In this document: piece by piece, positions 871 through 62,262 of the stretch
Layout of the letters: each line of letters begins with the position of its first letter
Numbering within the stretch: position 1 is the stretch's first letter
NCBI RefSeq assembly: GCF_056746865.1
Contig: NZ_CM163382.1
Direction: 5' to 3' (one strand)
DNA length: 64,000 bases
The notes under the pieces: model-generated
Database searches by the model: none
What the model was told of the DNA's origin: nothing
What the model saw: only the letters and a program-made list of their open reading frames with translations
Position numbers and translations under genes: made by a program

Positions 871-1625
871 GTCCAGTGCTTACGCAACATGTCAGCCAGC
901 CCATCACGCTGGACGAGCAAACGCAAAAGATGAAGCAGCATTTGCTACAGGATATCCGTCGCTCGGCTTACGTTTATCGCGTCGATTGCGGCGGCTGCAA
1001 CGCCTGTGAAATCGAAATTTTTGCTGCCATCACACCCGTATTCGACGCAGAACGTTTTGGCATTAAGGTTGTTTCATCACCGCGTCACGCCGATATTTTG
1101 TTATTTACTGGCGCAGTCACCCGGGCGATGCGTATGCCTGCACTTCGGGCGTATGAGTCTGCCCCCGATCATAAAATTTGTGTTTCCTACGGCGCGTGCG
1201 GTGTCGGCGGCGGTATTTTCCACGATCTTTACAGCGTCTGGGGCGGCAGCGACACCATTGTCCCCATTGATGTTTGGATCCCCGGCTGCCCGCCAACACC
1301 GGCCGCCACCATTCACGGTTTCGCCGTGGCGCTCGGTTTGCTGCAACAGAAGATTCACGCGGTGGATTATCGCGATCCCACCGGGGAGACCATGCAACCG
1401 CTGTGGCCGCAGATCCCGCCATCACAGCGTATCGCCATTGAGCGAGAAGCGAGGCGGCTGGCGGGCTATCGTCAGGGGCGAGAAATTTGCGATCGGCTCC
1501 TGCGCCATTTAAGCGACGATCCTACAGGAAATCGGGTTAACACCTGGTTGCGCGATGCCGACGATCCGCGTCTCAATAGTATCGTTCAGCAACTCTTTCG
1601 CGTACTCCGGGGGTTACATGACTGA
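867..1625 (+). CDS. hyfI: hydrogenase-4 small subunit (NuoB-like)
   Basis: 252 aa; [10 protein letters not shown] and GCPP motifs typical of NuoB/HycG-type small subunits. Confidence 0.85.
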
Positions 1626-2031
1626 AGAGTGCAGGGAAATTGTTTTCTGGACGCTGCGAAAAAAGTTTGTCGCCAGTAGCGACGAGATGCCGGAACACAG
1701 CTCCCAGGTAATGTATTACTCGCTAGCTATCGGCCATCACGTTGGCGTGATTGATTGTCTGAATGTCGCCTTCCGCTGCCCACTGACGGAATACGAAGAT
1801 TGGCTTGCACTGGTCGAAGAGGAGCAAGCCCGACGTAAGATGCTGGGGGTGATGACCTTTGGTGAGATTGTTATTGACGCCAGCCACACCACCCTGTTGA
1901 CCCGGGCATTCGCGCCACTGGCAGATGACGCGACGTCTGTGTGGCAGGCGCGTAGCATTCAATTCATTCATCTGTTGGATGAAATTGTGCAGGAACCGGC
2001 CATCTATCTGATGGCCAGAAAAATTGCGTGA
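1618..2031 (+). CDS. hyfJ: hydrogenase-4 maturation/assembly component (HycH-like)
   Basis: 137 aa from the ATG at 1618, overlapping the hyfI stop; the ORF track starts further upstream at 1555. Confidence 0.75.
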
Positions 2032-2057
2032 GAAGGATTTCTCATTAATAAGGACTG

Positions 2058-4073
2058 TTGATGGCTATGTCAGACGAGGCGATGTTTGCCCCGCCGCAAG
2101 GAATAACAATTGAAGCGGTAAACGGAATGCTCGCGGAGCGGTTAGCGCAGAAACACGGCAAGGCGTCTTTATTACGCGCCTTCATCCCGCTGCCGCCGCC
2201 GTTCAGCCCGGTACAACTTATTGAACTGCACGTTCTCAAAAGCAACTTCTATTACCGCTACCATGATGATGGCAGCGATGTGACGGCAACAGCAGAGTAT
2301 CAGGGCGAGATGGTCGATTATTCGCGTCACGCCGTCCTTCTCGGCAGTAGTGGAATGGCGGAGCTACGCTTTATTCGCACCCACGGCAGTCGTTTTACTC
2401 CCCAGGATTGCACACTGTTTAACTGGCTGGCACACATAATCACTCCGGTTCTGCAATCATGGCTCAATGATGAAGAACAGCAGGTGGCGCTGCGTTTGCT
2501 GGAGAAAGATCGCGATCATCATCGGGTACTGGTGGATATCACTAATGCAGTGTTGTCACATCTTGATCTCGACGATCTGATCGCTGACGTCGCTCGTGAG
2601 ATCCATCATTTTTTCGGTCTGGCTTCAGTCAGTATGGTACTGGGCGATCATCGAAAGAACGAGAAGTTCAGCCTGTGGTGCAGCGATCTTTCTGCCTCAC
2701 ATTGTGCGTGTCTGCCACGCTGTATGCCTGGCGAAAGTGTATTGCTGACACAAACGCTACAAACCCGACAACCGACCTTGACGCACCGTGCAGACGATCT
2801 GTTTCTCTGGCAACGCGACCCGTTATTACACTTACTTGCATCTAACGGCTGCGAATCTGCGCTCCTTATACCGCTCACCTTTGGCAACCATACACCGGGC
2901 ACATTGTTGCTGGCGCATACCTCTTCCACTCTCTTTAGTGAGGAAAACTGCCAGCTACTACAACATATTGCCGATCGCATCGCTATTGCCGTTGGCAATG
3001 CCGATGCCTGGCGCAGCATGACCGATTTGCAGGAAAGCTTGCAGCAAGAAAACCACCAGCTTAGCGAGCAGCTCCTTTCGAATCTGGGCGTCGGTGACAT
3101 TATCTATCAAAGCCAGGCAATGGAAGATTTGCTCCAGCAGGTAGATATTGTGGCGAAGAGCGACAGTACGGTGTTGATTTGTGGTGAAACCGGAACCGGC
3201 AAAGAGGTGATCGCCAGAGCGATCCATCAACTTAGCCCACGACGCGACAAGCCACTGGTCAAAATCAACTGCGCTGCCATCCCCGCCAGTCTTCTGGAAA
3301 GTGAGTTATTCGGTCATGACAAAGGGGCATTTACTGGTGCGATTAATACCCATCGTGGTCGTTTTGAAATTGCCGATGGCGGCACGTTGTTTCTCGATGA
3401 AATTGGCGATCTGCCGTTAGAACTTCAGCCTAAACTGCTGCGCGTATTGCAGGAACGGGAGATTGAGCGTCTCGGCGGGAGTAGAACGATCCCGGTAAAT
3501 GTCAGAGTCATTGCCGCCACCAACCGTGATTTGTGGCAAATGGTTGAAGATCGCCAGTTTCGCAGCGATCTCTTTTATCGCCTGAATGTCTTCCCACTGG
3601 AATTGCCCCCGCTACGCGACCGTCCGGAAGATATCCCTCTTTTAGCAAAACATTTCACGCAAAAAATGGCGCGCCATATGAATCGCGCAATTGACGCCAT
3701 CCCGACCGAGGCGCTACGCCAGTTGATGTCGTGGGACTGGCCGGGCAACGTGCGCGAGCTGGAAAACGTGATTGAGCGGGCGGTACTACTGACTCGCGGT
3801 AACAGTCTGAATTTACATCTTAATGTCCGACAAAGCCGTTTACTGCCGACGCTAAATGAAGATTCAGCGCTTCGCAGTTCAATGGCACAGTTGCTGCACC
3901 CGACGACGCCAGAGAATGACGAAGAAGAACGTCAGCGCATTGTTCAGGTATTGCGAGAAACCAATGGCATTGTTGCCGGGCCCCGTGGCGCGGCGACACG
4001 ATTAGGGATGAAGCGCACCACGCTGCTGTCACGAATGCAGCGTCTGGGGATCTCGGTTCGCGAGGTGTTGTAA
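2058..4073 (+). CDS. hyfR: sigma-54-dependent transcriptional activator of the hyf operon (FhlA-like)
   Basis: 671 aa; GETGTGKE Walker A, GAFTGA sigma-54 contact motif, C-terminal HTH. Confidence 0.85.
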
Positions 4074-20453: not shown

Positions 20454-20993
20454 ATGAAGAAAGTTTTTCTTTGCGCCATCTTAGCCTCCTTAAGCTATCC
20501 GGCTATCGCCTCATCATTGCAGGATCAACTCTCTGCTGTCGCAGAAGCGGAACAGCAAGGTAAAAATGAAGAGCAAAGGCAGCATGACGAATGGATCGCG
20601 GAGCGCAACAGGGAAATCCAGCAAGAGAAGCAACGTCGCGCAAACGCCCAGGCCGCCGCTAACAAAAGAGCGGCAACGGCAGCGGCAAATAAGAAAGCTC
20701 GTCAGGATAAACTGGATGCCGAAGCCACTGCGGACAAAAAACGCGATCAAAGTTATGAAGATGAGCTACGCAGCTTAGAGATTCAGAAACAAAAACTGGC
20801 GCTGGCGAAAGAAGAAGCCCGCGTTAAGCGCGAAAACGAATTTATCGATCAGGAACTGAAGCACAAAGCTGCGCAAACCGATGTGGTGCAATCTGAAGCT
20901 GACGCAAACAGGAATATGACTGAGGGCGGTCGCGATCTGATGAAAAGCGTGGGCAAAGCAGAAGAGAACAAATCGGACAGCTGGTTTAACTAA
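20454..20993 (+). CDS. yfgI: secreted coiled-coil protein YfgI
   Basis: 179 aa; signal peptide, charged coiled-coil body. Confidence 0.7.
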   Translation: MKKVFLCAILASLSYPAIASSLQDQLSAVAEAEQQGKNEEQRQHDEWIAERNREIQQEKQRRANAQAAANKRAATAAANKKARQDKLDAEATADKKRDQSYEDELRSLEIQKQKLALAKEEARVKRENEFIDQELKHKAAQTDVVQSEADANRNMTEGGRDLMKSVGKAEENKSDSWFN

Positions 20994-21040
20994 GCGATGT
21001 CAGTAACTTCAAGCCTATGATTCGTGAGTATAATAAATAT

Positions 21041-21065
21041 CCTCCGGCATAGCCGGAGGTTTTTC
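21041..21065 (+). terminator. rho-independent terminator downstream of yfgI
   Basis: CCTCCGGC-ata-GCCGGAGG hairpin followed by TTTTT. Confidence 0.7.
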
Positions 21066-21164
21066 AAATGCGCTAGACTGGCCCCCTGAATCTCCAGACA
21101 ACCAATATCACTTAAATAAGTGATAGTCTTAATACTAGTTTTTAGACTAGTCATTGGAGAGCAG

Positions 21165-21530
21165 ATGATTGATGTCTTAGGACCGGAGAAACGCAGACGG
21201 CGTACTACACAGGAAAAGATCGCTATTGTTCAGCAGAGTTTTGAACCGGGAATGACGGTCTCCCTTGTTGCCCGGCAACACGGTGTGGCAGCCAGCCAGT
21301 TATTTCTCTGGCGCAAGCAATACCAGGAGGGAAGTCTTACTGCTGTGGCCGCAGGAGAGCAGGTCGTTCCTGCCTCTGAACTTGCTGCTGCCATGAAGCA
21401 GATTAAAGAACTCCAGCGCCTGCTCGGCAAAAAAACGATGGAAAATGAACTCCTTAAAGAAGCCGTTGAATACGGGCGTGCAAAAAAGTGGATAGCGCAC
21501 GCGCCCTTATTGCCCGGGGATGGGGAGTAA
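21165..21530 (+). CDS. insC: IS2 transposase OrfA (InsC)
   Basis: 121 aa beginning [30 protein letters not shown]; HTH protein. Confidence 0.9.
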
Positions 21531-22393
21531 GCTTAGTCAGCCGTTGTCTCCGGGTGTCGCGTGCGCAGTTGCACGTCATTCTCAGACGAACCGATGACTG
21601 GAAAGATGGTCGCCGCAGCCGTCACTCAGATGATACGGATGTGCTTCTCCGTATACACCATGTTATCGGAGAGCTGCCCACGTATGGTTATCGTCGGGTA
21701 TGGGCGCTGCTTCGCAGACAGGCCGAACTTGATGGTATGCCTGCGATCAATGCCAAACGTGTTTACCGGATCATGCGCCAGAATGCGCTGTTGCTTGAGC
21801 GAAAAACCGCTGTACCGCCATCGAAACGGGCACATACTGGCAAAGTGGCCGTGAAAGAAAGCAATCAACGATGGTGCTCTGACGGGTTCGAGTTCCGCTG
21901 TGATAACGGAGAAAAACTGCGAGTCACGTTCGCGCTGGACTGCTGTGACCGTGAGGCACTGCACTGGGCAGTCACTACGGGCGGCTTCGACAGTGAAACA
22001 GTACAGGACGTAATGCTGGGAGCGGTGGAACGCCGCTTCGGCAACGAGCTTCCGGCGTCTCCAGTAGAGTGGCTGACGGATAATGGTTCATGCTACCGGG
22101 CTAATGAAACACGGCAGTTTGCCCGGATGTTGGGGCTTGAACCGAAGAACACGGCGGTGCGGAGTCCGGAGAGTAACGGCATAGCAGAGAGCTTCGTGAA
22201 AACGATAAAGCGTGACTACATCAGTATCATGCCTAAACCAGACGGGTTAACGGCAGCAAAGAACCTTGCAGAGGCGTTCGAGCATTATAACGAATGGCAT
22301 CCGCATAGTGCACTGGGTTATCGCTCGCCACGGGAATATCTACGGCAGCGGGCCAGTAATGGGTTAAGTGATAACAGGTGTCTGGAAATATAG
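21488..22393 (+). CDS. insD: IS2 transposase OrfB (InsD), DDE catalytic domain
   Basis: 301-aa ORF overlapping insC in another frame, as expected for IS3-family frameshifting. Confidence 0.9.
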
Positions 22394-22404
22394 GGGCAAA
22401 TCCA

Positions 22405-23112
22405 TGCGCCTATAAGGCTCTCTTACCAGCCGCGCCCTAACAGGCGCACACGATCTGACATTTGCATCCAACTTCGTTACTTACGGCCCGTAAACGGGCT
22501 GCCCGGATAGGGAATCGATAACTGCTCTCCCATTTTATCCTCTTCAAGCTGGTGCTTTATGTAATCCTGTATCTTCGCCGTGTTCTTACCCACTGTATCG
22601 ACGTAGTACCCTCTGCACCAGAACTCCCTGTTCCTGTATTTGAATTTCAAATCACCAAACTGCTCGTAAAGCATCAGACTGCTTTTCCCTTTCAGATATC
22701 CCATAAACCCGGATACGCTCATTTTAGGCGGGATCTCCACAAGCATATGGATATGATCTGCACAGCATTCAGCTTCCAGAATCCGTACGCTTTTCCACTC
22801 ACACAGCTTTCTCAAAATACTGCCTATTGCTCTACGCTTCTCTCTGTAGAACACCTGTCTTCGGTATTTTGGCGCAAAAACTATGTGATATTTACAGTTC
22901 CATCGGGTGTGCGCTAAGCTCTTTTCGTTCCCCATTGGGACCCCCTTTTGATTTCTTGTTTGACACTTGCAGTTGCCAGACCGCAAGGTGTTTTAACAAA
23001 TCAAAAGGGGTTTTAATAACTGGCTCAAAGCTGAAAGCTTTCCGGAACCCCCAGCCTAGCTGGGGGTTTTCTGTGCACAAAAAACCCTCTGTAGTAACAG
23101 AGGGTTTTGTTC
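22405..23112 (-). mobile_element. IS200-like element (IS200/IS605 family); boundaries approximate
   Basis: About 708 bp containing tnpA with an RBS-sequestering stem (22942-23013) and terminal hairpins near 23040-23108; it is unclear whether the outermost hairpin belongs to the IS or to the host. Confidence 0.55.
22477..22935 (-). CDS. tnpA: IS200/IS605-family transposase TnpA (HUH-type)
   Basis: 152 aa from MGNEKSLAHTRWNCKYHIVFAPKYRR with the HxH motif (DHIHMLVEIPP) and catalytic Tyr region; the ORF track begins at a longer upstream start. Confidence 0.85.
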   Translation of the reverse strand: MGNEKSLAHTRWNCKYHIVFAPKYRRQVFYREKRRAIGSILRKLCEWKSVRILEAECCADHIHMLVEIPPKMSVSGFMGYLKGKSSLMLYEQFGDLKFKYRNREFWCRGYYVDTVGKNTAKIQDYIKHQLEEDKMGEQLSIPYPGSPFTGRK

Positions 23113-45159: not shown

Positions 45160-45236
45160 GTGGCATTAGCTCAGCTGGACAGAGCAACCGCCTTCTAAGC
45201 GGTTGGTCGCAGGTTCGAATCCTGCATGCCACGCCA
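45160..45236 (+). tRNA. tRNA-Arg, anticodon UCU (reads AGA), prophage-encoded
   Basis: Manual cloverleaf: acceptor GTGGCAT/ATGCCAC, D-stem GCTC/GAGC, anticodon stem ACCGC/GCGGT with loop CTTCTAA, T-arm GCAGG-TTCGAAT-CCTGC, discriminator G and CCA end. Confidence 0.85.
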
Positions 45237-55372: not shown

Positions 55373-56407
55373 ATGAGTGAATTATCAATCATCGAAATCA
55401 CACCAGACATGGCACCAAGAATTTACGTTGAAAAAGGGCTGGAAAAGTTTCTCGAGCAGATCCGTGAAGGTGTTAATGAAGTGCCTGACATTAGCACAGA
55501 CAAAGGCAGAAAGCGCATTGCATCTCTGGCTGCGAAGGTTTCAAGAAGTAAAACAGCGGTAGAAAAACCAGGACGTGATTATCTGAAACGCCTGAAAGAA
55601 CAGCCGAAAGTAGTTGAAGCAGAGTTACGACGCTTCGTAACCGAATGCGATCGGCTTCGTGATGAAGTACGCCGCCCACTCACCGAGTGGGAAAATGCTG
55701 AGAAATTACGCACTGAAGCACTGCAACAACGCCTGACAAATTTGCGAGCACTAGCTGACGTGATCGATCTCTCCGGAAACTACTTGCCATCATCTGATAT
55801 TCAGGAACGAATTCAAGAGGCTAAATCAGTAGCACTTGATGAAAGTTGGCAGGAGTACGCAGCAGAAGCTGGAGTAGCCAAGGATTCAACCATCAAGAAA
55901 CTGGAAGAATCACTCGCAGTAGCTCAAAAACGCGAGCATGAAGCCGCTGAGCTGGAGCGACTTCGCAAAGAAGCGGAGGAAAAAGCGCGCATTGAGCGAG
56001 AAGAGAATATCCGACGGGAAGCTGCTGAACAGGCCAGGCTCGAAGCTGAACAAAAAGCGAAAGCTGAAATTGAGGCTGCGGCACGCCTGGCGGCGGAAGA
56101 AAAAGCACGTGCTGAAGTAGCAGAACGTCAGCGAATTGAAGCAGAGCAGCGTGCACGACGCGAAAAAGAAGAAGCCGTTGCCGAGGAACGCCGACGCCAA
56201 GAGGCGGCAGAAAAAGCCCGCCTTGACGAACAGAAGCGTATCGCCGACGAAGAAGCGCGCCGAGCTGCAGATAAAGAGCATCGCCGTACCGTTAACCGCA
56301 GAGTAATCGCAGATCTGATAGCCCAAGGCATTCACGAAGAATTCGCGCAGAAAGCAATGTTGGCTATCGCTGGCGGCAAAGTGCAGGACGCGTATATCAA
56401 ATATTGA
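55373..56407 (+). CDS. coiled-coil protein with TolA-like Glu/Ala/Lys/Arg-rich repeats
   Basis: 344 aa; long low-complexity helical region (EAEQKAKAEIEAAARLAAEEKARAE...); first gene of the recombination operon. Confidence 0.5.
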   Translation: MSELSIIEITPDMAPRIYVEKGLEKFLEQIREGVNEVPDISTDKGRKRIASLAAKVSRSKTAVEKPGRDYLKRLKEQPKVVEAELRRFVTECDRLRDEVRRPLTEWENAEKLRTEALQQRLTNLRALADVIDLSGNYLPSSDIQERIQEAKSVALDESWQEYAAEAGVAKDSTIKKLEESLAVAQKREHEAAELERLRKEAEEKARIEREENIRREAAEQARLEAEQKAKAEIEAAARLAAEEKARAEVAERQRIEAEQRARREKEEAVAEERRRQEAAEKARLDEQKRIADEEARRAADKEHRRTVNRRVIADLIAQGIHEEFAQKAMLAIAGGKVQDAYIKY

Positions 56408-56408
56408 G

Positions 56409-56714
56409 GTGGGTATGAACGTTAATCAGCAGAAAAATCTTCAAAAAATCATGCTGGCATTCGACAAGGACTACCGCCTGTCAGAACAGCTATATGACCG
56501 ACAAGTTGAACTGATCGATAGCATCCGGCTTCATCAACTGGCCTCAACTTTTGACGCTGTAACAGGCAAAGGAGTTCGCCAGGAAGTACTGGAGGCTGCT
56601 AAAGACAGCCCTGAGTTCGAAGAACTGATGGATGCCTACCGGCGAGAGGCAATGGCAATTATCGCCCGCTGGGATCTGGCGGATCGGATTGATGGGCAGA
56701 GGGAAGCGGCATGA
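56409..56714 (+). CDS. hypothetical protein
   Basis: 101 aa, between the coiled-coil gene and the exonuclease gene. Confidence 0.45.
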   Translation: MGMNVNQQKNLQKIMLAFDKDYRLSEQLYDRQVELIDSIRLHQLASTFDAVTGKGVRQEVLEAAKDSPEFEELMDAYRREAMAIIARWDLADRIDGQREAA

Positions 56715-57532
56715 AACCGGGAATTTATTTCGACATCAGCAATGAGGACTACCACGCCGGTGACGGCGTGAGTAAGTCGCAACTGGACATGGTTGCCAAG
56801 AATCCGGCGCTTCTTAAATGGGTTCAGGCAGCACCAGAAGACGAAGAGAAAAAGTCTGCACTGGATATGGGAACCGCATTGCACTGCCTGCTTCTGGAGC
56901 CTGGAGAGTTCGACAAACGCTTCATTGTTTCACCGAAATTCGATCGTCGGACGAAACAAGGTAAAGCTGACGAAGAAGCATTTCTTCGTGATGTAGCGGA
57001 TATGGGGATTACGGTACTTGATGCCGAGCAGTGGCGGAAACTGGAGCTGATGCGTGATAGCGCAATGGCTCACCCGGCGGCACGCTGGATGCTGGAAGCA
57101 CCTGGTTACTGCGAAGCATCAATGTACTGGAATGATGAAGAGACTGGTGAGTTGTGCCGCATTCGTCCAGACAAATGGCTGAACGAGCACAACGTGATCG
57201 TCGACGTGAAAAAGGTTGCAGATATGGACCGTTTTGCACGCCACATCGAGGAATTCCGCTACCACGTGCAGGACGCAATGTACCGCGAAGGCGCAATGAG
57301 GGTTACTGGTCAGCCGCATGGTTTTTTCTTTCTTGCCGTGAGCGAAAGCATTGATTGTGGTCGGTATCCGGTACGCGTGTTCGAGCTGGATGCGCCGGAT
57401 GTCGATGCCGGGCACGCTCTGTTCCGCCGGGATCTGAATACCTATCACGAATGCCGCATCAACGATGAGTGGGGCGGAGTGGAAATTATTAAACGCCCTG
57501 ACTGGGCACGTAAACAGGATATGTACGTATGA
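56711..57532 (+). CDS. RecE-like exodeoxyribonuclease VIII (PD-(D/E)xK exonuclease)
   Basis: 273 aa; N-terminus MKPGIYFDISNEDYHAGDGVSKSQL and an internal D...E.K motif (VIVDVKKV); upstream of RecT. Confidence 0.65.
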   Translation: MKPGIYFDISNEDYHAGDGVSKSQLDMVAKNPALLKWVQAAPEDEEKKSALDMGTALHCLLLEPGEFDKRFIVSPKFDRRTKQGKADEEAFLRDVADMGITVLDAEQWRKLELMRDSAMAHPAARWMLEAPGYCEASMYWNDEETGELCRIRPDKWLNEHNVIVDVKKVADMDRFARHIEEFRYHVQDAMYREGAMRVTGQPHGFFFLAVSESIDCGRYPVRVFELDAPDVDAGHALFRRDLNTYHECRINDEWGGVEIIKRPDWARKQDMYV

Positions 57533-58410
57533 GCAATGATATCGCAATCACATCACAACCAGGCGCAACTGTAGGTACTGCTGCGGCAATCTTCAGCCCG
57601 GAGGGCATGAATCAACTGGTGCGTTTCGCGGAGTTGATGTCACAAAGCAAAGCGACTGTACCGAAACATCTTGAAGGCAAACCTGCCGATTGTCTGGCGG
57701 TGACCATGCAGGCGGCACAGTGGGGAATGAACCCTTTCGCCGTGGCGCAGAAAACGCATGTGGTAAACGGAACGTTAGGCTACGAAGCACAGTTGGTAAA
57801 CGCGGTCGTATCCTCTTCCAGCCTGCTAGCGACACGCCTGAATTATCGCTGGAGCGGTGACTGGTCGAATGTTAACGGCAAAACAGATAAATCACCGAAT
57901 CTGACGGTAACTGTGTCAGCAGTTCTTAAAGGAGAAGCAGAACCCCGTGAGCTTACCATCAGTATGGCGCAAGCCGGAGTGCGTAACTCTCCATTGTGGG
58001 AACAGGATCCGCGCCAGCAGCTTGCCTATCTTTGCACGAAACGATGGGCTCGCCTGCACGCTCCTGATGTGCTTCTCGGTGTTTACACCCCTGACGAATT
58101 ACAGGAAACGGCACCGCGCGTTGAGCGAGACATTACTCCGCAAACGACTACTGCTGCGGGAATGAACAGTCTGATCAACGCTAAACCAGTGAAAAAGCAT
58201 GATGAGCAAACGCGTAAAGCGGATAGCCGTGATCCAGAAGAAATGCTGATGGCCTTTACCAGCGCAGCGATGAATTACAGCACTGTCTCCGAACTGGATA
58301 AGGCTTACAAATACATTGCACAAAAACTTTCAGATGATGACGAACTGCTGGCAAAAGCCACCGACGTTTACAGCGTTCGTCGGGAAGAATTAAACGAAAC
58401 ATCTATGTAA
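57529..58410 (+). CDS. RecT-family single-strand annealing recombinase
   Basis: 293 aa; paired with the upstream exonuclease. Confidence 0.65.
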   Translation: MSNDIAITSQPGATVGTAAAIFSPEGMNQLVRFAELMSQSKATVPKHLEGKPADCLAVTMQAAQWGMNPFAVAQKTHVVNGTLGYEAQLVNAVVSSSSLLATRLNYRWSGDWSNVNGKTDKSPNLTVTVSAVLKGEAEPRELTISMAQAGVRNSPLWEQDPRQQLAYLCTKRWARLHAPDVLLGVYTPDELQETAPRVERDITPQTTTAAGMNSLINAKPVKKHDEQTRKADSRDPEEMLMAFTSAAMNYSTVSELDKAYKYIAQKLSDDDELLAKATDVYSVRREELNETSM

Positions 58411-58459
58411 CCACCACCGCGGCGCCACACGCGCCGCACTGCAACCAAGAGAGGTATTT

Positions 58460-58708
58460 ATGAAAGGTGCATTAGGTAAGAAGGAACTCCTGGCGGTGGT
58501 GCCACTGTCATGGAGCACTATCGACCGTATGGAGCGCGCAGGGGAATTTCCTAAACGCTGGTATATCACTGACAAACGCTGCGCATGGAACCGTGACGAA
58601 GTTGAGCGTTGGCTTGATGAACGTCAGGCAGCAAGCCCGGCAGAGTTCCAGGGTAAAAAACCTCCTGTTCAGCAACGTGTATATCGTCCCGTGAGCAACG
58701 CTGCATGA
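58460..58708 (+). CDS. AlpA/Xis-like small DNA-binding protein (excisionase candidate)
   Basis: 82 aa; AlpA-like HTH region (LAVVPLSWSTIDRMERAGEFPKRWYI). Confidence 0.55.
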   Translation: MKGALGKKELLAVVPLSWSTIDRMERAGEFPKRWYITDKRCAWNRDEVERWLDERQAASPAEFQGKKPPVQQRVYRPVSNAA

Positions 58709-58817
58709 GTGCGCTGCTAAGGCACTGGATCAAATGGTCAGGATGGTACTTATTCCTGGCCTCTGTTTCAGCATGGCTTTATCTGCTGGCATTAATTTTC
58801 AGAGAGGGTTGGATTAA

Positions 58818-59117
58818 GTGAGAAAGTTAAGCCGACTTGAAAAATATCACATGAATAAGGTTTCAATGCGCAGTCCGTCAAAGATTGTCGCCGTTACTCC
58901 TGCGGCGATAGAGATCGAAAAACGCGCGATTGAAAGAGAGAAAAAAGGGCAGTTCCGCATTGCCGCTCACCTTTGGCTTCAGTGTATGGATGTTGCTTCT
59001 GGTGATGTTGAGCGTGCAAGGATCGCGGTTCGCAGGGACCAATGTATCACAAAAGGTAACGGCCTTCGCCGTGGAGACTATAGCGGTATAGGATGTTGCG
59101 GGGTGGTTTATGACTAA
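58818..59117 (+). CDS. hypothetical protein, translationally coupled to the methyltransferase
   Basis: 99 aa; its stop overlaps the methyltransferase start. Confidence 0.4.
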   Translation: MRKLSRLEKYHMNKVSMRSPSKIVAVTPAAIEIEKRAIEREKKGQFRIAAHLWLQCMDVASGDVERARIAVRRDQCITKGNGLRRGDYSGIGCCGVVYD

Positions 59118-59760
59118 GAAATACACACTAATCTATGCAGATCCACCCTGGGTATACCGGGACAAAGCCGCAGATGGTAATCGCGGTGCCGGTTTTAAAT
59201 ATCCGGTTATGAGTGTGATGGATATCTGCCGCCTTCCTGTGTGGGATTTGGCCGATGAAAACTGTCTGTTGGCCATGTGGTGGGTGCCAACACAACCACT
59301 CGAAGCACTAAAAGTTGTTGAAGCCTGGGGGTTCCGTCTGATGACCATGAAGGGCTTCACGTGGATAAAATGTGGTAGTCGACAACCAGATAAACTGGTT
59401 ATGGGTATGGGACACATGACTCGCGCCAATAGTGAAGATTGCCTGTTTGCAGTTAAGGGAAAACTACCTCCGCGCATTAATGCAGGGATCGTTCAGTCAT
59501 TTACCGCACCGCGGCTTGAGCATTCAAGAAAACCAGATGTCGTTCGTGAAAAACTTGTGCAATTGTTAGGCGATGTTTCTCGCATTGAACTGTTCGCCCG
59601 CCAGACGTCTCATGGCTTCGATGTTTGGGGTAATCAGTGCGAAGACCCGGCAGTGCAACTACACCCCGGATACGCGTTGGATATTGGCGGATTAACAAAT
59701 GCATTCAGCAATGCTCCGCTGTCACCAACAGACAACCAGGGACGGGAGCGTGCAGCATGA
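59110..59760 (+). CDS. MT-A70 family N6-adenine DNA methyltransferase (orphan)
   Basis: 216 aa; catalytic DPPW motif (LIYADPPWVY); no adjacent restriction endonuclease gene recognised. Confidence 0.75.
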   Translation: MTKKYTLIYADPPWVYRDKAADGNRGAGFKYPVMSVMDICRLPVWDLADENCLLAMWWVPTQPLEALKVVEAWGFRLMTMKGFTWIKCGSRQPDKLVMGMGHMTRANSEDCLFAVKGKLPPRINAGIVQSFTAPRLEHSRKPDVVREKLVQLLGDVSRIELFARQTSHGFDVWGNQCEDPAVQLHPGYALDIGGLTNAFSNAPLSPTDNQGRERAA

Positions 59761-60005
59761 AGCAGATTATGGTTGCACACAACGGCGTCAGGTTTGAAGT
59801 CGTCATGGTTTTGACTAAGTTCCACAATGATGAGGTATTGCACAGAAAAGAAACTGTAACTTACCGTTATAAACACCGCAGTTCAGCTGTTAGAAAATTA
59901 CGGAAGATTGCGGAAGAACTAAAAAATGATCCTCATCGTGTTATTGAGGTAAAAGGCAACCCATATAAAATCAAAACTTCAGTGGAGCTAAGACATATGC
60001 AATAA
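59757..60005 (+). CDS. hypothetical small protein
   Basis: 82 aa from the ATG at 59757, overlapping the methyltransferase stop (ATGA). Confidence 0.4.
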   Translation: MKQIMVAHNGVRFEVVMVLTKFHNDEVLHRKETVTYRYKHRSSAVRKLRKIAEELKNDPHRVIEVKGNPYKIKTSVELRHMQ

Positions 60006-60329
60006 AATCACGCCTGACGAATCGCGATTATCTCGCTATTGGTATTGCAGAGATTGCTGGACTCAATGGCGCATGATTTGACAATGCCGCCAGAGCTATC
60101 GCATACTGACCGCACTAGAAAACAAACAGCGGTCATCCGCACCCGATAGCTTTGCGGCTTTTTTATGCCTGCAATCTGGCATAGTCACATCCGTACAAAG
60201 GTCGGGTGGAGAGGCGTAATACAACACCCGAAAGGGGAATATGCCCGGAGCTACTGTTTGTGCTCTAGTTGACACCCGATCACCAGCTACTAACTGGTTT
60301 TCGTAACTAAAAACAAACAGGAGGTCATC

Positions 60330-60980
60330 ATGACCAGTCAACTCATCCCCGTATTCAACGGCACTATATCCAACGAAACCGCTCTTCTCGTTAATGCCCG
60401 TGATTTACACACTTTCCTCGATGTGGGTAAGCGATTTGCTTCGTGGATTGTCGAACGAATTGCTGAATATGGTTTCGTTGAAAATCAAGACTTTATGATT
60501 ATTTCCCAAGTTCGGGAAAAAATAGGCAGAGGCCGTCCTGCAAAAGACTACCACCTCACCCTCGATACAGCCAAAGAGCTGGCGATGGTCGAGCGTAATG
60601 AAAAAGGTCGTCAGGTACGACGCTACTTCATTGAATGCGAGAAACGTTTAAGACAACAAGAAACAAAAGTGGAGAAGGTCTTGTCAGGCTTCATGCCCGC
60701 CATTATGGAGGCGATCAAGCTGGAAGACAAAAAAGAATACAGTGCCCCACTGAAGCCCGGCTACCGCAGCCTGATTCACTCGCCGTCTGGTGTTCTCGGC
60801 CTGACGGAGCACTCACTGCTGATGAATCTGCTGAACCAGTTACAGGACGACGGGCACGACGTATCGGGCGCGGCGGCGGAGCTGACCACCATGTTCTGCT
60901 ACATCGTCGGTGTGAGCAAATGCCTGCGTGATATCCAGACTCACGCGGAGTACATCAACGACAAGGCAGGATTCTTCTGA
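60330..60980 (+). CDS. antirepressor-like protein (Ant/Bro-N-type N-terminal domain), function uncertain
   Basis: 216 aa; strong Shine-Dalgarno (AGGAGG) and TTGACA at 60259-60264; N-terminal region resembles phage antirepressor families. Confidence 0.4.
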   Translation: MTSQLIPVFNGTISNETALLVNARDLHTFLDVGKRFASWIVERIAEYGFVENQDFMIISQVREKIGRGRPAKDYHLTLDTAKELAMVERNEKGRQVRRYFIECEKRLRQQETKVEKVLSGFMPAIMEAIKLEDKKEYSAPLKPGYRSLIHSPSGVLGLTEHSLLMNLLNQLQDDGHDVSGAAAELTTMFCYIVGVSKCLRDIQTHAEYINDKAGFF

Positions 60981-61011
60981 CGGCGGCGGCACAGGGATGT
61001 GCCGGGCAAAA

Positions 61012-62262
61012 TTATTCCCCCGCCATCCACTTCTCAAACTTCGACGGGGAGAACGGAATCAGATCCGTATGCTCCCCGTTAATCCAGGAATCAATCATAT
61101 CGGACCACTGCTGCAACATGTAGGCGCGCTGTCTGGCGTATTCCGCTTTGTTATATACGGCGCGCACACCTTTCTGCTCATGTGCCAGAGCCTTTTCAAT
61201 CCAGTCTGAAGGATAACCAGCCTCATGCAACAACGTACTGGCTGTACGGCGCATATCGTGTACGGTGAAGTCCTGAATATGCTCACCATCTTCATTTATT
61301 ATTTTCACCGTTCTGTCGATCAGAGAGTTCAGCGCGGCATTAGATAATGGCTTCCGGAAGTTGTAACGACCAGGAACCAGATATTCACTTCCACCAGCGC
61401 ACATCTGCAACCCAACCAATATATCCTGAGCCTGTTTAGGCAGGTAAATAACGTGCGCCCGGCTTCCCTTCATGCGGTCTGAAGGAATTGTCCATGTCCA
61501 TTTTTTAAAATCTATTTCGTCCCACGTTGCATTAGTGAATTCGCCTTTACGAACCATAGTGATAAGCACCAGCTTTAAAGCCATTTTCATAGTGCCCATA
61601 GCACCAATGGCATCCAGCGTGCGGAAGAACAGGCCAATTTCTTCTGGTGTCAGTGTTCGCTCTCGTGGTTTAAATATGGCGATAGACGAAGGTTTAATGT
61701 CAGCCGCAGGATTAAACAAACCATGACCACGGTCATTGGCGTGACGGTATACGCTACTGATGATCTCCCTGGCCTGCACTGCTGTTGCCCGGCCACCGCG
61801 TTCGACAATCCGGTCACACAAATCACGAACCATCGATGTGGTAATTTCAGCCATCATTTTATTGCCAAGAACCGGAAGTATGTCACGGTCGATCACCGCC
61901 TGTTTCATTGCGCGGGTACTGTCAGCCAGGATGACGTGTTTCATATAACTGTCGGTATGTACCGCAAACGTCTCGGCACCACGAATCTTTTTGATACCGT
62001 CACGTTTAGCCGCAGCCGGTGACTGGCCTGCTTTAAGCAGCTTCTTTGCAGCAATCAGTTCTTCTCGCGCTTCTGCCAGGCTGATACCGTCACGCCCATA
62101 CTGCCCGATTACCAGTGTTTCGCGGCGACCGTTGATACGGTAGTCATAGCGAAACGAGACCGTGCCTGACGTAAGCACAGCTACATACAGCCCGTCACGA
62201 TCGGAGACCTTGTACAGTTTGTCCTGCGGCTTGAGGTTTTTTAATTTTGTATCGGTAAGCAC
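61012..62262 (-). CDS. int: tyrosine integrase (P4-like, with N-terminal arm-binding domain)
   Basis: 416 aa; N-terminus MLTDTKLKNLKPQDKLYKVSDRDGLYVAV typical of arm-type DNA-binding domains; C-terminal catalytic region (HDMRRT...AHEQKGVRAVY); adjacent to the att repeat. Confidence 0.85.
   Translation of the reverse strand: MLTDTKLKNLKPQDKLYKVSDRDGLYVAVLTSGTVSFRYDYRINGRRETLVIGQYGRDGISLAEAREELIAAKKLLKAGQSPAAAKRDGIKKIRGAETFAVHTDSYMKHVILADSTRAMKQAVIDRDILPVLGNKMMAEITTSMVRDLCDRIVERGGRATAVQAREIISSVYRHANDRGHGLFNPAADIKPSSIAIFKPRERTLTPEEIGLFFRTLDAIGAMGTMKMALKLVLITMVRKGEFTNATWDEIDFKKWTWTIPSDRMKGSRAHVIYLPKQAQDILVGLQMCAGGSEYLVPGRYNFRKPLSNAALNSLIDRTVKIINEDGEHIQDFTVHDMRRTASTLLHEAGYPSDWIEKALAHEQKGVRAVYNKAEYARQRAYMLQQWSDMIDSWINGEHTDLIPFSPSKFEKWMAGE

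Follow-up and report, generated by a model that had tools for sequence, protein, structure and literature searches.

Among small MT-A70 adenine methyltransferases (MTases), M.EcoPA8orf6770P of the Stx2a phage PA8 forms a 1:1 complex with PNB-2, encoded by the overlapping gene upstream, and losing the PA8 MTase homologue gives a phenotype (PMC10810198). Together with PNB-2, the enzyme prefers 16S rRNA in 30S subunits (Gong, Chakraborty and Koudelka, NAR 2023, PMC10810198), and the purified enzyme alone displays no significant activity on DNA, dam- DNA included (Gong et al., PMC10810198). The MT-A70 protein of E. coli O104:H4, 99% identical to M.EcoPA8orf6770P, was equated with M.EcoGV by the same authors (PMC10810198). 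As reported in PMC10810198 and PMC6602927, overproduced M.EcoGV methylates GATC in vivo, and relatives are entered as GATC enzymes in REBASE. PMC4764244 and PMC6265319 present PerC and Pch as activators which, at horizontally acquired genes, remodel the nucleoid-protein complexes, and Pch proteins of groups 2 and 3 differ in activating LEE1/ler or other target promoters (PMC6265319).

A PerC-family gene and an MT-A70 gene lie side by side in phiV10 (NC_007804), a Uetakevirus in which alpA and a 38-aa membrane ORF are followed by a PerC-family activator (PhiV10p34), an adenine methylase (PhiV10p33) and a DUF1382 protein (PhiV10p32). The locus analysed here occupies 58818-60005 of the window, a stretch of 64,000 nt, and forms the last stretch of the early-left operon in a Uetakevirus prophage (phiV10/epsilon15-like) that is integrated next to guaA (Table 1). 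The alpA-perC-MTase stretch shares 98.6% nucleotide identity and the same gene order with phiV10, and the integrase gene and guaA adjoin the prophage genes. The early-left gene order, the high nucleotide identity and a P4-type integrase beside guaA are the features of Uetakevirus membership found here. Two near-identical prophages carry structural genes. The order alpA, 38-aa ORF, PerC, further genes, MT-A70, variable gene and int is common to epsilon15, SPN9TCW and Tyrion (Uetakevirus), and the alpA-to-int order is also kept in an unclassified Klebsiella phage, there too next to the GMP synthase gene. A 2-kb query matched, at least in part, 939 of the 5426 complete E. coli genomes, yet 80% or more of it was present in only 22.

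Table 1. Genes of the putative early-left operon end in the window, with the matches that identify them.
Feature	Coordinates	Strand	Evidence
recE-like PD-(D/E)XK exonuclease, same early-left operon, upstream	56711..57532	+	Pfam DUF3799 4.2e-22; NCBIfam exonuclease VIII C-terminal region 9e-93; PHROG 412
RecT recombinase, 4-nt overlap with recE	57529..58410	+	Pfam RecT 8.3e-32
AlpA-family regulator/excisionase-like protein	58460..58708	+	Pfam Phage_AlpA 3.1e-5, 24.2 bits against a cut-off of 21; PHROG 66; phiV10p36 orthologue
38-aa single-TM peptide, MSALLRHWIKWSGWYLFLASVSAWLYLLALIFREGWIK	58705..58821	+	annotated as membrane protein in phiV10p35, epsilon15 gp32 and Tyrion gp33
PerC-family small regulator, 99 aa, GTG start	58818..59117	+	Pfam PerC 6e-7; PHROG 868 5.7e-62
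MT-A70 (class beta) N6-adenine methyltransferase, 216 aa	59110..59760	+	Pfam MT-A70 3e-22; PADLOC MTase_II 5.6e-77
82-aa near-ORFan, slot after the MTase	59757..60005	+	PHROG 9805 only

The three ORFs of the locus, the DPPW motif in the 216-aa MTase and the start/stop overlaps are all present as the first-pass annotation had described them. The PerC-like and MTase genes overlap by 8 nt, ATGACTAA, and the MTase and 82-aa ORFs overlap by 4 nt, ATGA. Since all three match PHROG profiles (8e-120 for the MTase and 2.3e-56 for the 82-aa ORF, besides the 99-aa value in Table 1), and the MTase also matches Pfam MT-A70, they are regarded as genuine genes and not chance ORFs. The MTase does sit within a translationally coupled gene string, but the self-contained three-gene operon that had been proposed does not hold. 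The 38-aa ORF overlaps the alpA stop by ATGA at its start and the GTG of the 99-aa gene by GTGA at its stop, so the chain begins upstream at alpA and there is no discrete three-gene operon; the recE-like and recT genes overlap as well. A promoter and terminator scan of 58300-61100 gave counts not above those of shuffles, with no + strand site between alpA and the PerC gene. The sole notable promoter-like site (TTGACA-18-CATACT, 60078-60107) lies upstream of a C4-like RNA and antA, and folding of 60100-60175 gave no convincing intrinsic terminator (z = -2.25).

Compared with phiV10, the locus has the identical 8-nt PerC/MTase overlap and an adjoining P4-type integrase, but the slot 3' of the MTase holds the 82-aa ORFan instead of DUF1382 (64 aa), and a C4-like RNA and an AntA antirepressor are additionally present before int. 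Furthermore, recE and recT are annotated as a single fused gene in the phiV10 record, whereas two overlapping genes exist here.

The 216-aa protein is predicted to be an MT-A70 class-beta N6-adenine methyltransferase, as first proposed, on the strength of Pfam, PADLOC MTase_II and solved-structure matches. Residues 5-176 align with profile positions 1-172 of 172 in PF05063 (79.8 bits, cut-off 23.9). Motif IV (YADPPWVY) is situated near the N-terminus, with DPPW at residues 11-14 in a permuted motif order, and D11, P12, P13 and W14 are invariant or nearly so in 16 homologues. Matches to a solved Tetrahymena MT-A70 protein and to METTL3 chains range from 3e-13 to 3e-6, with the DPPW aligned to that of the Tetrahymena protein. 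From about residue 188, the C-terminal tail is variable and probably disordered. M.EcoGIX, a plasmid-borne single-strand-specific enzyme of another family, was ruled out as a relative. The 216-aa MT-A70 core carries no obvious target-recognition domain, an observation that counts against the favoured reading given below.

Over residues 1-187, the MTase shares 155/187 identities (83%, E 1e-123) with M.EcoPA8orf6770P and 82% identity with the O104:H4 protein. Like the PA8 and O104:H4 enzymes, it is an orphan with a DPPW core near the int end of a temperate phage; its start likewise overlaps the upstream stop, and in those loci the downstream slot is often DUF1382. The PA8 backbone is a lambdoid Sepvirinae and not a Uetakevirus, and its upstream gene encodes PNB-2 (143 aa, wHTH-like) in place of the PerC-like protein; no PNB-2 gene lies next to the MTase here. 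The C-terminal 27 residues of the PA8 type, proposed to be required for holoenzyme formation, have no counterpart: similarity stops at residue 187, and the two tails bear no relation to each other. BLASTP between the PerC-like protein and PNB-2 gave no alignment and hhalign (9-sequence against 17-sequence alignments) a probability of 0.6%, and the two are treated as unrelated. 'Partial' PNB-2 matches with other Pfam domains proved to be deletion or frameshift chimeras with the N-terminal part alone in common. The activities on 16S rRNA (with PNB-2) and on GATC DNA (overproduced) were measured on the PA8/M.EcoGV enzymes and not on the window MTase.

The MTase is an orphan. In agreement with the first annotation, no restriction endonuclease was found nearby: none is annotated in the two near-identical prophages, none was detected by Pfam in the window-specific stretches, and PADLOC gave no defence-system match besides MTase_II. 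Two ORFs of the window, of 195 and 172 aa, lack any Pfam match. The neighbours are the PerC-like protein, the ORFan, AntA and the integrase, so that the adjacent cognate endonuclease of a Type II restriction-modification system is missing. An anti-restriction methylase, as had been suggested, is still a live reading, by which the MTase may confer some anti-restriction benefit; the other suggestion, an uncharacterised modification-dependent module, is without support.

Neither flanking gene had been credited with a recognisable function, but the 99-aa protein is a PerC-family member. It matches PF06069 above the cut-off (30.1 bits against 22.6, residues 35-80), PHROG 868 'transcriptional activator' spans its residues 1-99, and the gene is annotated as PerC in RefSeq and in the phiV10 record. 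The ANR (AraC negative regulator) family NF033650 was rejected at 23.6 bits, below the cut-off of 32. The RefSeq and phiV10 records start the gene at internal ATGs, giving 83 or 88 aa (the RefSeq 83-aa form from 58866). The 99-aa GTG-start form is better supported, because its N-terminal residues are kept in epsilon15 gp31, where the internal Met residues are Leu and Gln, and because the PHROG profile covers residues 1-99. Structure prediction, proposed earlier for both small proteins, succeeded for one of them. The AlphaFold2 model of the PerC-like protein (mean pLDDT 72) contains a confident three-helix core at residues 28-79 (pLDDT 84-92), for which Foldseek against the PDB found nothing significant (best E 0.26, with a weak MIT/TPR-like resemblance). 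The single-sequence model of the 82-aa ORF (mean pLDDT 48, pTM 0.36) is too poor for a fold search.

Compared with EPEC PerC and EHEC Pch, the PerC-like protein has the same PF06069 motif region and is likewise the small product of a prophage-borne, horizontally transferred gene. Unlike these regulators, it belongs to a distinct narrow subfamily, for which a search of 1.84 billion proteins at E<=1e-3 found just 35 representatives, and it possesses its own conserved N-terminal extension and a Gly/Cys-rich tail.

A PerC-family gene recurs ahead of adenine-MTase genes that belong to three Pfam families and occur in two phage backbones. In SfV-like lambdoid phages, the place flanked by a wHTH-PerC gene and by rusA is taken by differing MTases. 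SfV, mEp460 and Lys8385Vzw have a PF05869 Dam there, ST64B a larger protein that includes a PF05869 domain, L112 and L115 a PF02086 D12 Dam, and Buttiauxella L102 an MT-A70 protein. In L113 and L114, the D12 MTase lies one gene further, past a 433-451-aa protein with no Pfam match. In SfV orf40-dam and the K-12 CPS-53 yfdN-yfdM type, as here, the PerC-family gene is directly upstream of and overlaps the phage adenine MTase, and the ST64B record ties sb43/sb44 to b2357/b2356. These pairs differ from the present one in that the PerC protein bears a wHTH at its N-terminus (about 140-162 aa), the MTase belongs to PF05869 or PF02086, and the pair lies in the early-right replication/nin region by rusA.

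In other Uetakeviruses, one to three genes, including DUF1317, a wHTH protein or a DndB-like gene, lie between PerC and the MTase. The ATGACTAA junction is also the PerC/DUF1317 junction of epsilon15, which argues that the PerC/MTase overlap is secondary; the direct overlap is a derived feature that belongs to the phiV10 lineage. Across 21 species, the gene directly upstream of MT-A70 is heterogeneous (NinB, DndB-like, DUF1317, TraR-like by eye with no Pfam match, and others), yet it overlaps the MT-A70 start in most loci, mostly by 4 nt; overlap alone is therefore no evidence of partnership. In-frame PerC-MTase fusions produced by a 1-nt deletion occur on at least two contigs.

The slot 3' of the MTase is a site of cassette swapping. 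In 80 loci with MTases 98-100% identical, it holds DUF1382, a Ser/Thr phosphatase or the 82-aa ORF, all from the same ATGA. Since three alternative cassettes share one junction, the 82-aa ORF is no dedicated partner of the MTase, contrary to the partnership implied by the first-pass annotation. It is also nearly unique in public data, with one 90%-identity cluster among 5.8 billion proteins, one phage record and 18 of 5426 E. coli genomes, and its G+C content is low (37-41%). Evidence of selection on it is weak: the only two alleles are set apart by 2 synonymous and 6 non-synonymous changes.

It is on balance probable that this phiV10-type operon end encodes an orphan MTase that methylates DNA in a Dam-like manner, a PerC-like protein that is a separate regulator and an 82-aa ORF that is a moron-type passenger. 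Once the prophage is derepressed, recE-recT, alpA, the 38-aa membrane peptide gene, the PerC-family gene, MT-A70 and the accessory ORF would be read together as a single leftward early transcript, and the successive stop/start overlaps would couple their translation. The MTase, of the M.EcoGV/M.EcoPA8orf6770P family, would, with the N-terminal DPPW motif as its active site, use SAM to add Dam-like adenine methylation to phage and host DNA in lytic growth or after induction, thereby protecting or marking the phage genome. The PerC-like protein would most likely be a small regulator that merely abuts the MTase and no obligatory subunit, and the 82-aa ORF would ride along as the passenger. The substrate is presumably DNA, a reading favoured by the PerC/rusA slot, which holds Dam-type MTases interchangeably with MT-A70, and by the reported GATC methylation by M.EcoGV; the specificity would be GATC-like. 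The inactivity of purified M.EcoPA8orf6770P on DNA (PMC10810198) suggests that DNA is perhaps not the physiological substrate of this subfamily. GATC occurs 142 times in the prophage against 161 expected, with no special signal. For a Dam-like enzyme to be more than redundant in a dam+ E. coli host, it would need a different specificity or timing, a further point against this reading. The relatives METTL3/14 and MTA1c require partners, which weighs on the same side.

That the MTase is instead half of a two-subunit RNA MTase, its core inactive alone and the PerC-like product replacing PNB-2 to steer m6A to 16S rRNA or other RNA and so tune translation and spontaneous induction, is considered unlikely. 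The 83% identity of the core to an enzyme bound 1:1 by its upstream-gene product (PMC10810198) is consistent with it, as are the overlap of the upstream gene with the MTase start, the in-frame fusions on at least two contigs, the predicted three-helix fold of the PerC-like protein, which is weakly MIT/TPR peptide-binding-like in the model and not HTH, and the variable, probably disordered MTase tail as a possible docking site. However, the PerC-like protein and PNB-2 have no detectable relation, the tail proposed to bind PNB-2 differs here, and the rRNA claim for PA8 comes from SAM-consumption assays with the modified base unmapped (PMC10810198). The intervening genes of the other Uetakeviruses and the heterogeneous upstream genes with their widespread overlaps also stand against such a holoenzyme. 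PerC-type genes furthermore precede Dam-type MTases of other Pfam families. Such Dam-type MTases are not known to require an accessory subunit.

PerC precedes the MTase both in the early-left operon of Uetakeviruses and in the replication/nin region of SfV-like phages, and in the latter slot the MTase has been swapped among PF05869, PF02086 and PF05063. On this ground a wider idea may be entertained, doubtful as it is: PerC-family proteins and phage adenine MTases would constitute a general two-gene functional unit. The PerC-like protein would be the counterpart of PNB-2, serving as a small helical adaptor or as a controller to direct adenine methylation or set its timing, and the virulence regulators PerC/Pch of EPEC/EHEC would descend from a phage module associated with methylation.

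A regulator and a methylase acting as an epigenetic pair with no holoenzyme, in which the PerC-like protein controls MTase expression like a C protein or its promoters are methylation-sensitive, so that the two together switch phage or host genes, is quite improbable. PerC/Pch are known activators at horizontally acquired genes (PMC4764244, PMC6265319), which would suit such a pair. The recurrence of PerC genes directly upstream of adenine MTases in two backbones and three Pfam families points the same way, as does the SfV record, which puts dam -35/-10 signals within the PerC-like ORF; but the sample amounts to two independent backbones, no binding sites or methylation-sensitive motifs were identified, and the synteny could be mere module inheritance. 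To our knowledge, moreover, the canonical perC (pEAF perABC) and EHEC pch genes have not been described as MTase-linked.

A vestigial MTase, silent or non-functional in the lysogen and contributing, like the 82-aa ORF, nothing measurable, is very unlikely. In its favour, methylome studies show no motif that can be assigned to several prophage MTases or cannot tell Dam homologues apart from Dam itself (PMC6602927), the locus commonly occurs with frameshifts, deletions or insertions (P0001, P0003; a copy 81 bp longer in strain A357) and the 82-aa ORF bears no sign of purifying selection in its two alleles. Against it stand the strong conservation of the MTase core throughout Enterobacterales, where many positions, among them those of the catalytic motif, are invariant, the retention of the MTase in every Uetakevirus examined, and the phenotype that follows loss of the PA8 homologue (PMC10810198).

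The locus itself is a common prophage module and largely ordinary, with genes already annotated in public records. Its MTase provides a natural comparison on whether small phage MT-A70 enzymes methylate DNA (GATC) or 16S rRNA, offering the same catalytic core without PNB-2 and with a different tail and a PerC-type neighbour. Meanwhile, the PerC-to-adenine-MTase order, if functional, would tie a virulence-regulator family to phage methylation.

A Uetakevirus (phiV10/epsilon15-like) prophage sits at its guaA attachment site, and the region is its early-left operon. Its genes run in the order repressor, recE, recT, alpA, a 38-aa ORF, a PerC-family gene, the MT-A70 methyltransferase (MTase) gene and a variable gene, past which lie the integrase and then guaA. 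Across alpA to the MTase gene, the 2-kb stretch shares 98.6% identity with phage phiV10; over its full length, a few E. coli prophages and phage HEMP4 match it at 96.6–99.7%. The three ORFs of the first-pass annotation are all present with the lengths and start/stop overlaps it gave, the PerC-like and MTase ORFs sharing 8 nt (ATGACTAA) and the MTase and 82-aa ORFs sharing 4 nt (ATGA). They do not form a discrete three-gene unit, since the coupling starts upstream of 58818: alpA overlaps the 38-aa ORF by ATGA, the stop of the latter and the GTG start at 58818 share GTGA, and the recE-like and recT genes directly upstream also overlap each other. Among phage protein profiles, the three products match PHROG 868 (5.7e-62), PHROG 359 (8e-120) and PHROG 9805 (2.3e-56), respectively. 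The PerC-like gene starts at 58866 in RefSeq (83 aa) and at 58851 in the phiV10 record; the epsilon15 orthologue conserves residues 1–16 and has both internal Met positions substituted, hence the 99-aa form is the better call.

Coordinates of features in the window and in comparison loci
Sequence	Feature	Position	Strand	Remarks
Window	IS3-family transposase	21488-22393		rve domains
Window	IS200 transposase	22477-22986	-	
Window	STnc490 RNA of IS200 transposase	22945-23068	-	146 bits
Window	tRNA-Arg	45160-45236	+	anticodon TCT
Window	344-aa charged protein	55373-56407	+	PHROG 1376
Window	alpA	58460-58708		
Window	38-aa ORF	58705-58821		single TM
Window	PerC-like ORF	58818-59117	+	99 aa, GTG start
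Window	MTase ORF	59110-59760	+	216 aa, YADPPW; DPPW = residues 11-14
Window	82-aa ORF	59757-60005	+	82 aa
Window	Promoter-like site	60078-60107		upstream of sRNA-Xcc1 match
Window	sRNA-Xcc1 (RF02221) match	60200-60289	+	Rfam 64.8 bits, gathering score 53
Window	antA (AntA antirepressor)	60330-60980		
Window	Integrase	61012-62262	opposite to operon	
Window	guaA	62455-63954		
L042 (also L045, L073, L078)	DndB-like insertion	1898-3001		
L085	DndB-like insertion	1937-3004		
L098	DndB-like insertion			
L125	PerC-MTase fusion	1501-2394		297 aa, P0003, single-T deletion
L087 (E. coli A357)	MT-A70 gene	20711-21442		732 nt
L116 (SfV)	PerC-family gene and slot MTase (PF05869 Dam)	2001-3142		
L102 (Buttiauxella prophage)	PerC-family gene and slot MTase (PF05063 MT-A70)	2543-3570		
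L111 (O104:H4 Stx2a prophage)	sRNA-Xcc1 before Ant	3628-3717		
L003 (PA8)	isrK and C4 antisense RNA	2605-2787		
L003 (PA8)	gp7 (PNB-1)	2840-3517		ORF6N domain

Neither of two near-identical prophages has a restriction endonuclease in its annotation, which bears out the orphan status of the MTase. When the window was mapped against these two and the window-specific segments were scanned with Pfam, the scan returned IS3-family and IS200 transposases, tail fibre, Ea22, DUF551, DUF1064, replication protein P, a DnaT-like protein and two ORFs without a hit. Both transposases lie at the far prophage end, in a stretch (21120-23068) missing from both comparison prophages. Elsewhere, the tRNA-Arg gene lies inside the prophage, as it does in related prophages, and a highly charged Ala/Glu/Arg/Lys-rich protein with a weak TolA-like match, encoded between the repressor region and recE, is present in strain A357; GF43 and phiV10 have a 153-nt ORF instead.

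The 99-aa protein scores 30.1 bits against PF06069 (cut-off 22.6) and by this profile is a PerC-family member; its score against the NCBIfam ANR model is under the model cut-off. The claim that neither small flanking gene has a recognisable function thus falls for this gene, the 82-aa gene being an interchangeable near-ORFan. The PerC-like subfamily is narrow: a search of 1.84 billion proteins yields 35 representatives at E<=1e-3. AlphaFold2, with a 9-sequence alignment, predicts a confident helical core (residues 28–79, pLDDT 84–92) and a disordered Gly/Cys-rich tail, and a Foldseek search with the model gave no significant match, with a weak MIT/TPR-like resemblance only.

The PerC-like protein is probably not a dedicated MTase subunit. 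Across 21 species, the gene directly upstream of MT-A70 is heterogeneous, including PerC-like, PNB-2, DndB-like, DUF1317, NinB, a TraR-like protein (so assigned by eye, without a Pfam hit), a PD-(D/E)XK match that is weak and below threshold, and unknowns. In most of these loci it overlaps the MT-A70 start, mostly by 4 nt; overlap is therefore the normal state of the cassette and no sign of partnership. In four of 80 close loci, a 367-aa DndB-like gene lies between PerC and MTase, coupled on both sides. Such DndB-like/DGQHR proteins of 355–367 aa (PADLOC DndB 1.5e-37; Pfam DndB 2.4e-47) occupy this position in some phiV10-like and SPN9TCW-like prophages, and a ParB-fold DNA-binding DndB-like protein adjoining MT-A70 recalls ParB-MTase fusions. 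The backbone order described above recurs in three Uetakevirus phages (epsilon15, SPN9TCW and Tyrion) and in an unclassified Klebsiella phage that likewise sits beside GMP synthase. One to three genes separate PerC from MTase in these four, namely DUF1317 alone, DUF1317 with a 75-aa wHTH protein, or a small DUF1317-like ORF with a 355-aa DndB-like protein. At the PerC gene end, the ATGACTAA junction forms the DUF1317 start in epsilon15 and the MTase start in phiV10 and the window, so that the direct overlap looks like a deletion product of the phiV10 lineage rather than ancestral coupling. On the other side, at least two contigs have the PerC and MTase reading frames joined by a 1-nt deletion in the TTT run of the GGTTTATG junction; P0001, a further variant, is a deletion fusion. 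The in-frame fusion is weak Rosetta-stone evidence for partnership, and the variants could also be real mutation/decay or assembly error.

Downstream, the position is a swappable accessory slot. Among 80 IMG/VR loci with an MTase 98–100% identical, the gene starting at the same ATGA encodes DUF1382 (64 aa) in about 50, a Ser/Thr phosphatase (219 aa) in about 24 and the 82-aa ORF of the window in about six. With three cassette classes at one ATGA, the downstream gene is not an MTase partner, and the 82-aa gene loses that role. Judged by its distribution, the latter is a near-ORFan, forming one 90%-identity cluster among 5.8 billion proteins, with a single GenBank phage record; of 5426 complete E. 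coli genomes, 18 carry it. Its G+C is low, its structure prediction is unusable, and 2 synonymous against 6 non-synonymous codon changes separate its two alleles.

The 216-aa protein is an MT-A70 enzyme as first assigned, with a full-length domain and DPPW present; among solved structures, it lies closest to Tetrahymena MT-A70 proteins (3e-13) and METTL3 (3e-6). The core is highly conserved across Enterobacterales, and the tail past WGNQC is variable. A357, the closest genome match, has an MT-A70 gene of 732 nt against 651 nt in the window, 81 bp more, through an in-frame insertion or duplication at which the BLAST match breaks in two. Overlooked by the first-pass annotation, a relative from Stx2a phage PA8, 83% identical to the window MTase over residues 1–187, was studied by Gong, Chakraborty and Koudelka (PMC10810198). 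In phage PA2, spontaneous induction and amoeba killing fell when IS629 interrupted the gene, and a plasmid copy complemented the defect but a DPPW-to-APPA mutant did not (PMC10810198). Purified by itself, the PA8 enzyme was not significantly active on either DNA or RNA; it co-purified 1:1 with PNB-2, encoded by the overlapping upstream gene gp6, and 16S rRNA in 30S subunits was the substrate with which the complex preferentially consumed SAM, with no modified base mapped (PMC10810198). One rival reading is an RNA/rRNA methyltransferase needing an adaptor, for which the PerC-like protein would be the candidate. Neither BLASTP nor profile-profile comparison relates the PerC-like protein to PNB-2, and the window MTase tail is unlike the 27 residues of PA8 proposed as needed for PNB-2 binding (PMC10810198). 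M.EcoGV of E. coli O104:H4, 'highly similar' to the PA8 enzyme (PMC10810198), on overproduction methylates GATC in vivo (Fang et al. 2012, as cited in PMC10810198) and is listed as a GATC 'Dam homolog' in PMC6602927; relatives are entered in REBASE as GATC enzymes. The O104:H4 MT-A70 shares 99% identity with the PA8 enzyme and 82% with the window MTase, and lies downstream of a PNB-2 identical to that of PA8.

In SfV-like lambdoid phages, distant PerC-family proteins of the YfdN type (N-terminal wHTH, ~140–162 aa) are encoded immediately upstream of adenine MTases, between the replication gene and rusA. The slot holds PF05869 Dam in SfV, mEp460 and Lys8385Vzw, a longer protein with the PF05869 domain in ST64B, PF02086 D12 Dam in two metagenomic contigs (L112 and L115) and PF05063 MT-A70 in a Buttiauxella prophage, whose PerC-like and replication proteins are homologous to their counterparts in other backbones. 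In L113 and L114, the D12 MTase is one gene further, past a 433–451-aa protein without a Pfam hit. The ST64B record links E. coli K-12 b2357/b2356 (yfdN/yfdM) to the same pair. MT-A70 can thus take the place of bona fide DNA Dam-type enzymes in one slot, an analogy in favour of DNA adenine methylation being at least among its functions. In the loci sampled, a PerC-type gene accompanies an adenine MTase in two distinct phage backbones; the association may be functional (regulatory or adaptor) or inherited synteny. A regulator-plus-methylase epigenetic pair is a second rival reading, and the MTase as a silent passenger is a third.

Beside the operon, the sRNA-Xcc1 match lies ~40 nt upstream of antA, whose ~260-bp leader occurs in ~380 E. 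coli genomes. The O104:H4 Stx2a prophage also has sRNA-Xcc1 before Ant, whereas PA8 has isrK and a C4 antisense RNA at the equivalent position. The arrangement resembles an immunity module of the P1 c4/ant type, distinct from the MTase operon. PA8 gp7 ('PNB-1' of PMC10810198), with an antirepressor-type domain and preceded by these RNAs, corresponds to the O104:H4 'phage antirepressor Ant' gene; PNB-1 is probably the antirepressor of an immunity module and not MTase-related.

Beyond the observed gene identities, order, overlaps, orphan status, cassette behaviour and homology to studied enzymes, derepression would let the early-left promoter express the genes together; in a scan of 58300-61100, no promoter or terminator inside the operon stood out. 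The MTase would then move a methyl group from SAM to adenine N6 in DNA, probably with Dam-like specificity, and this methylation would protect or mark phage DNA. The locus is otherwise of known type; mildly new are the PNB-2-less, PerC-adjacent arrangement of a contested enzyme family and the recurrent PerC-to-adenine-MTase gene order.
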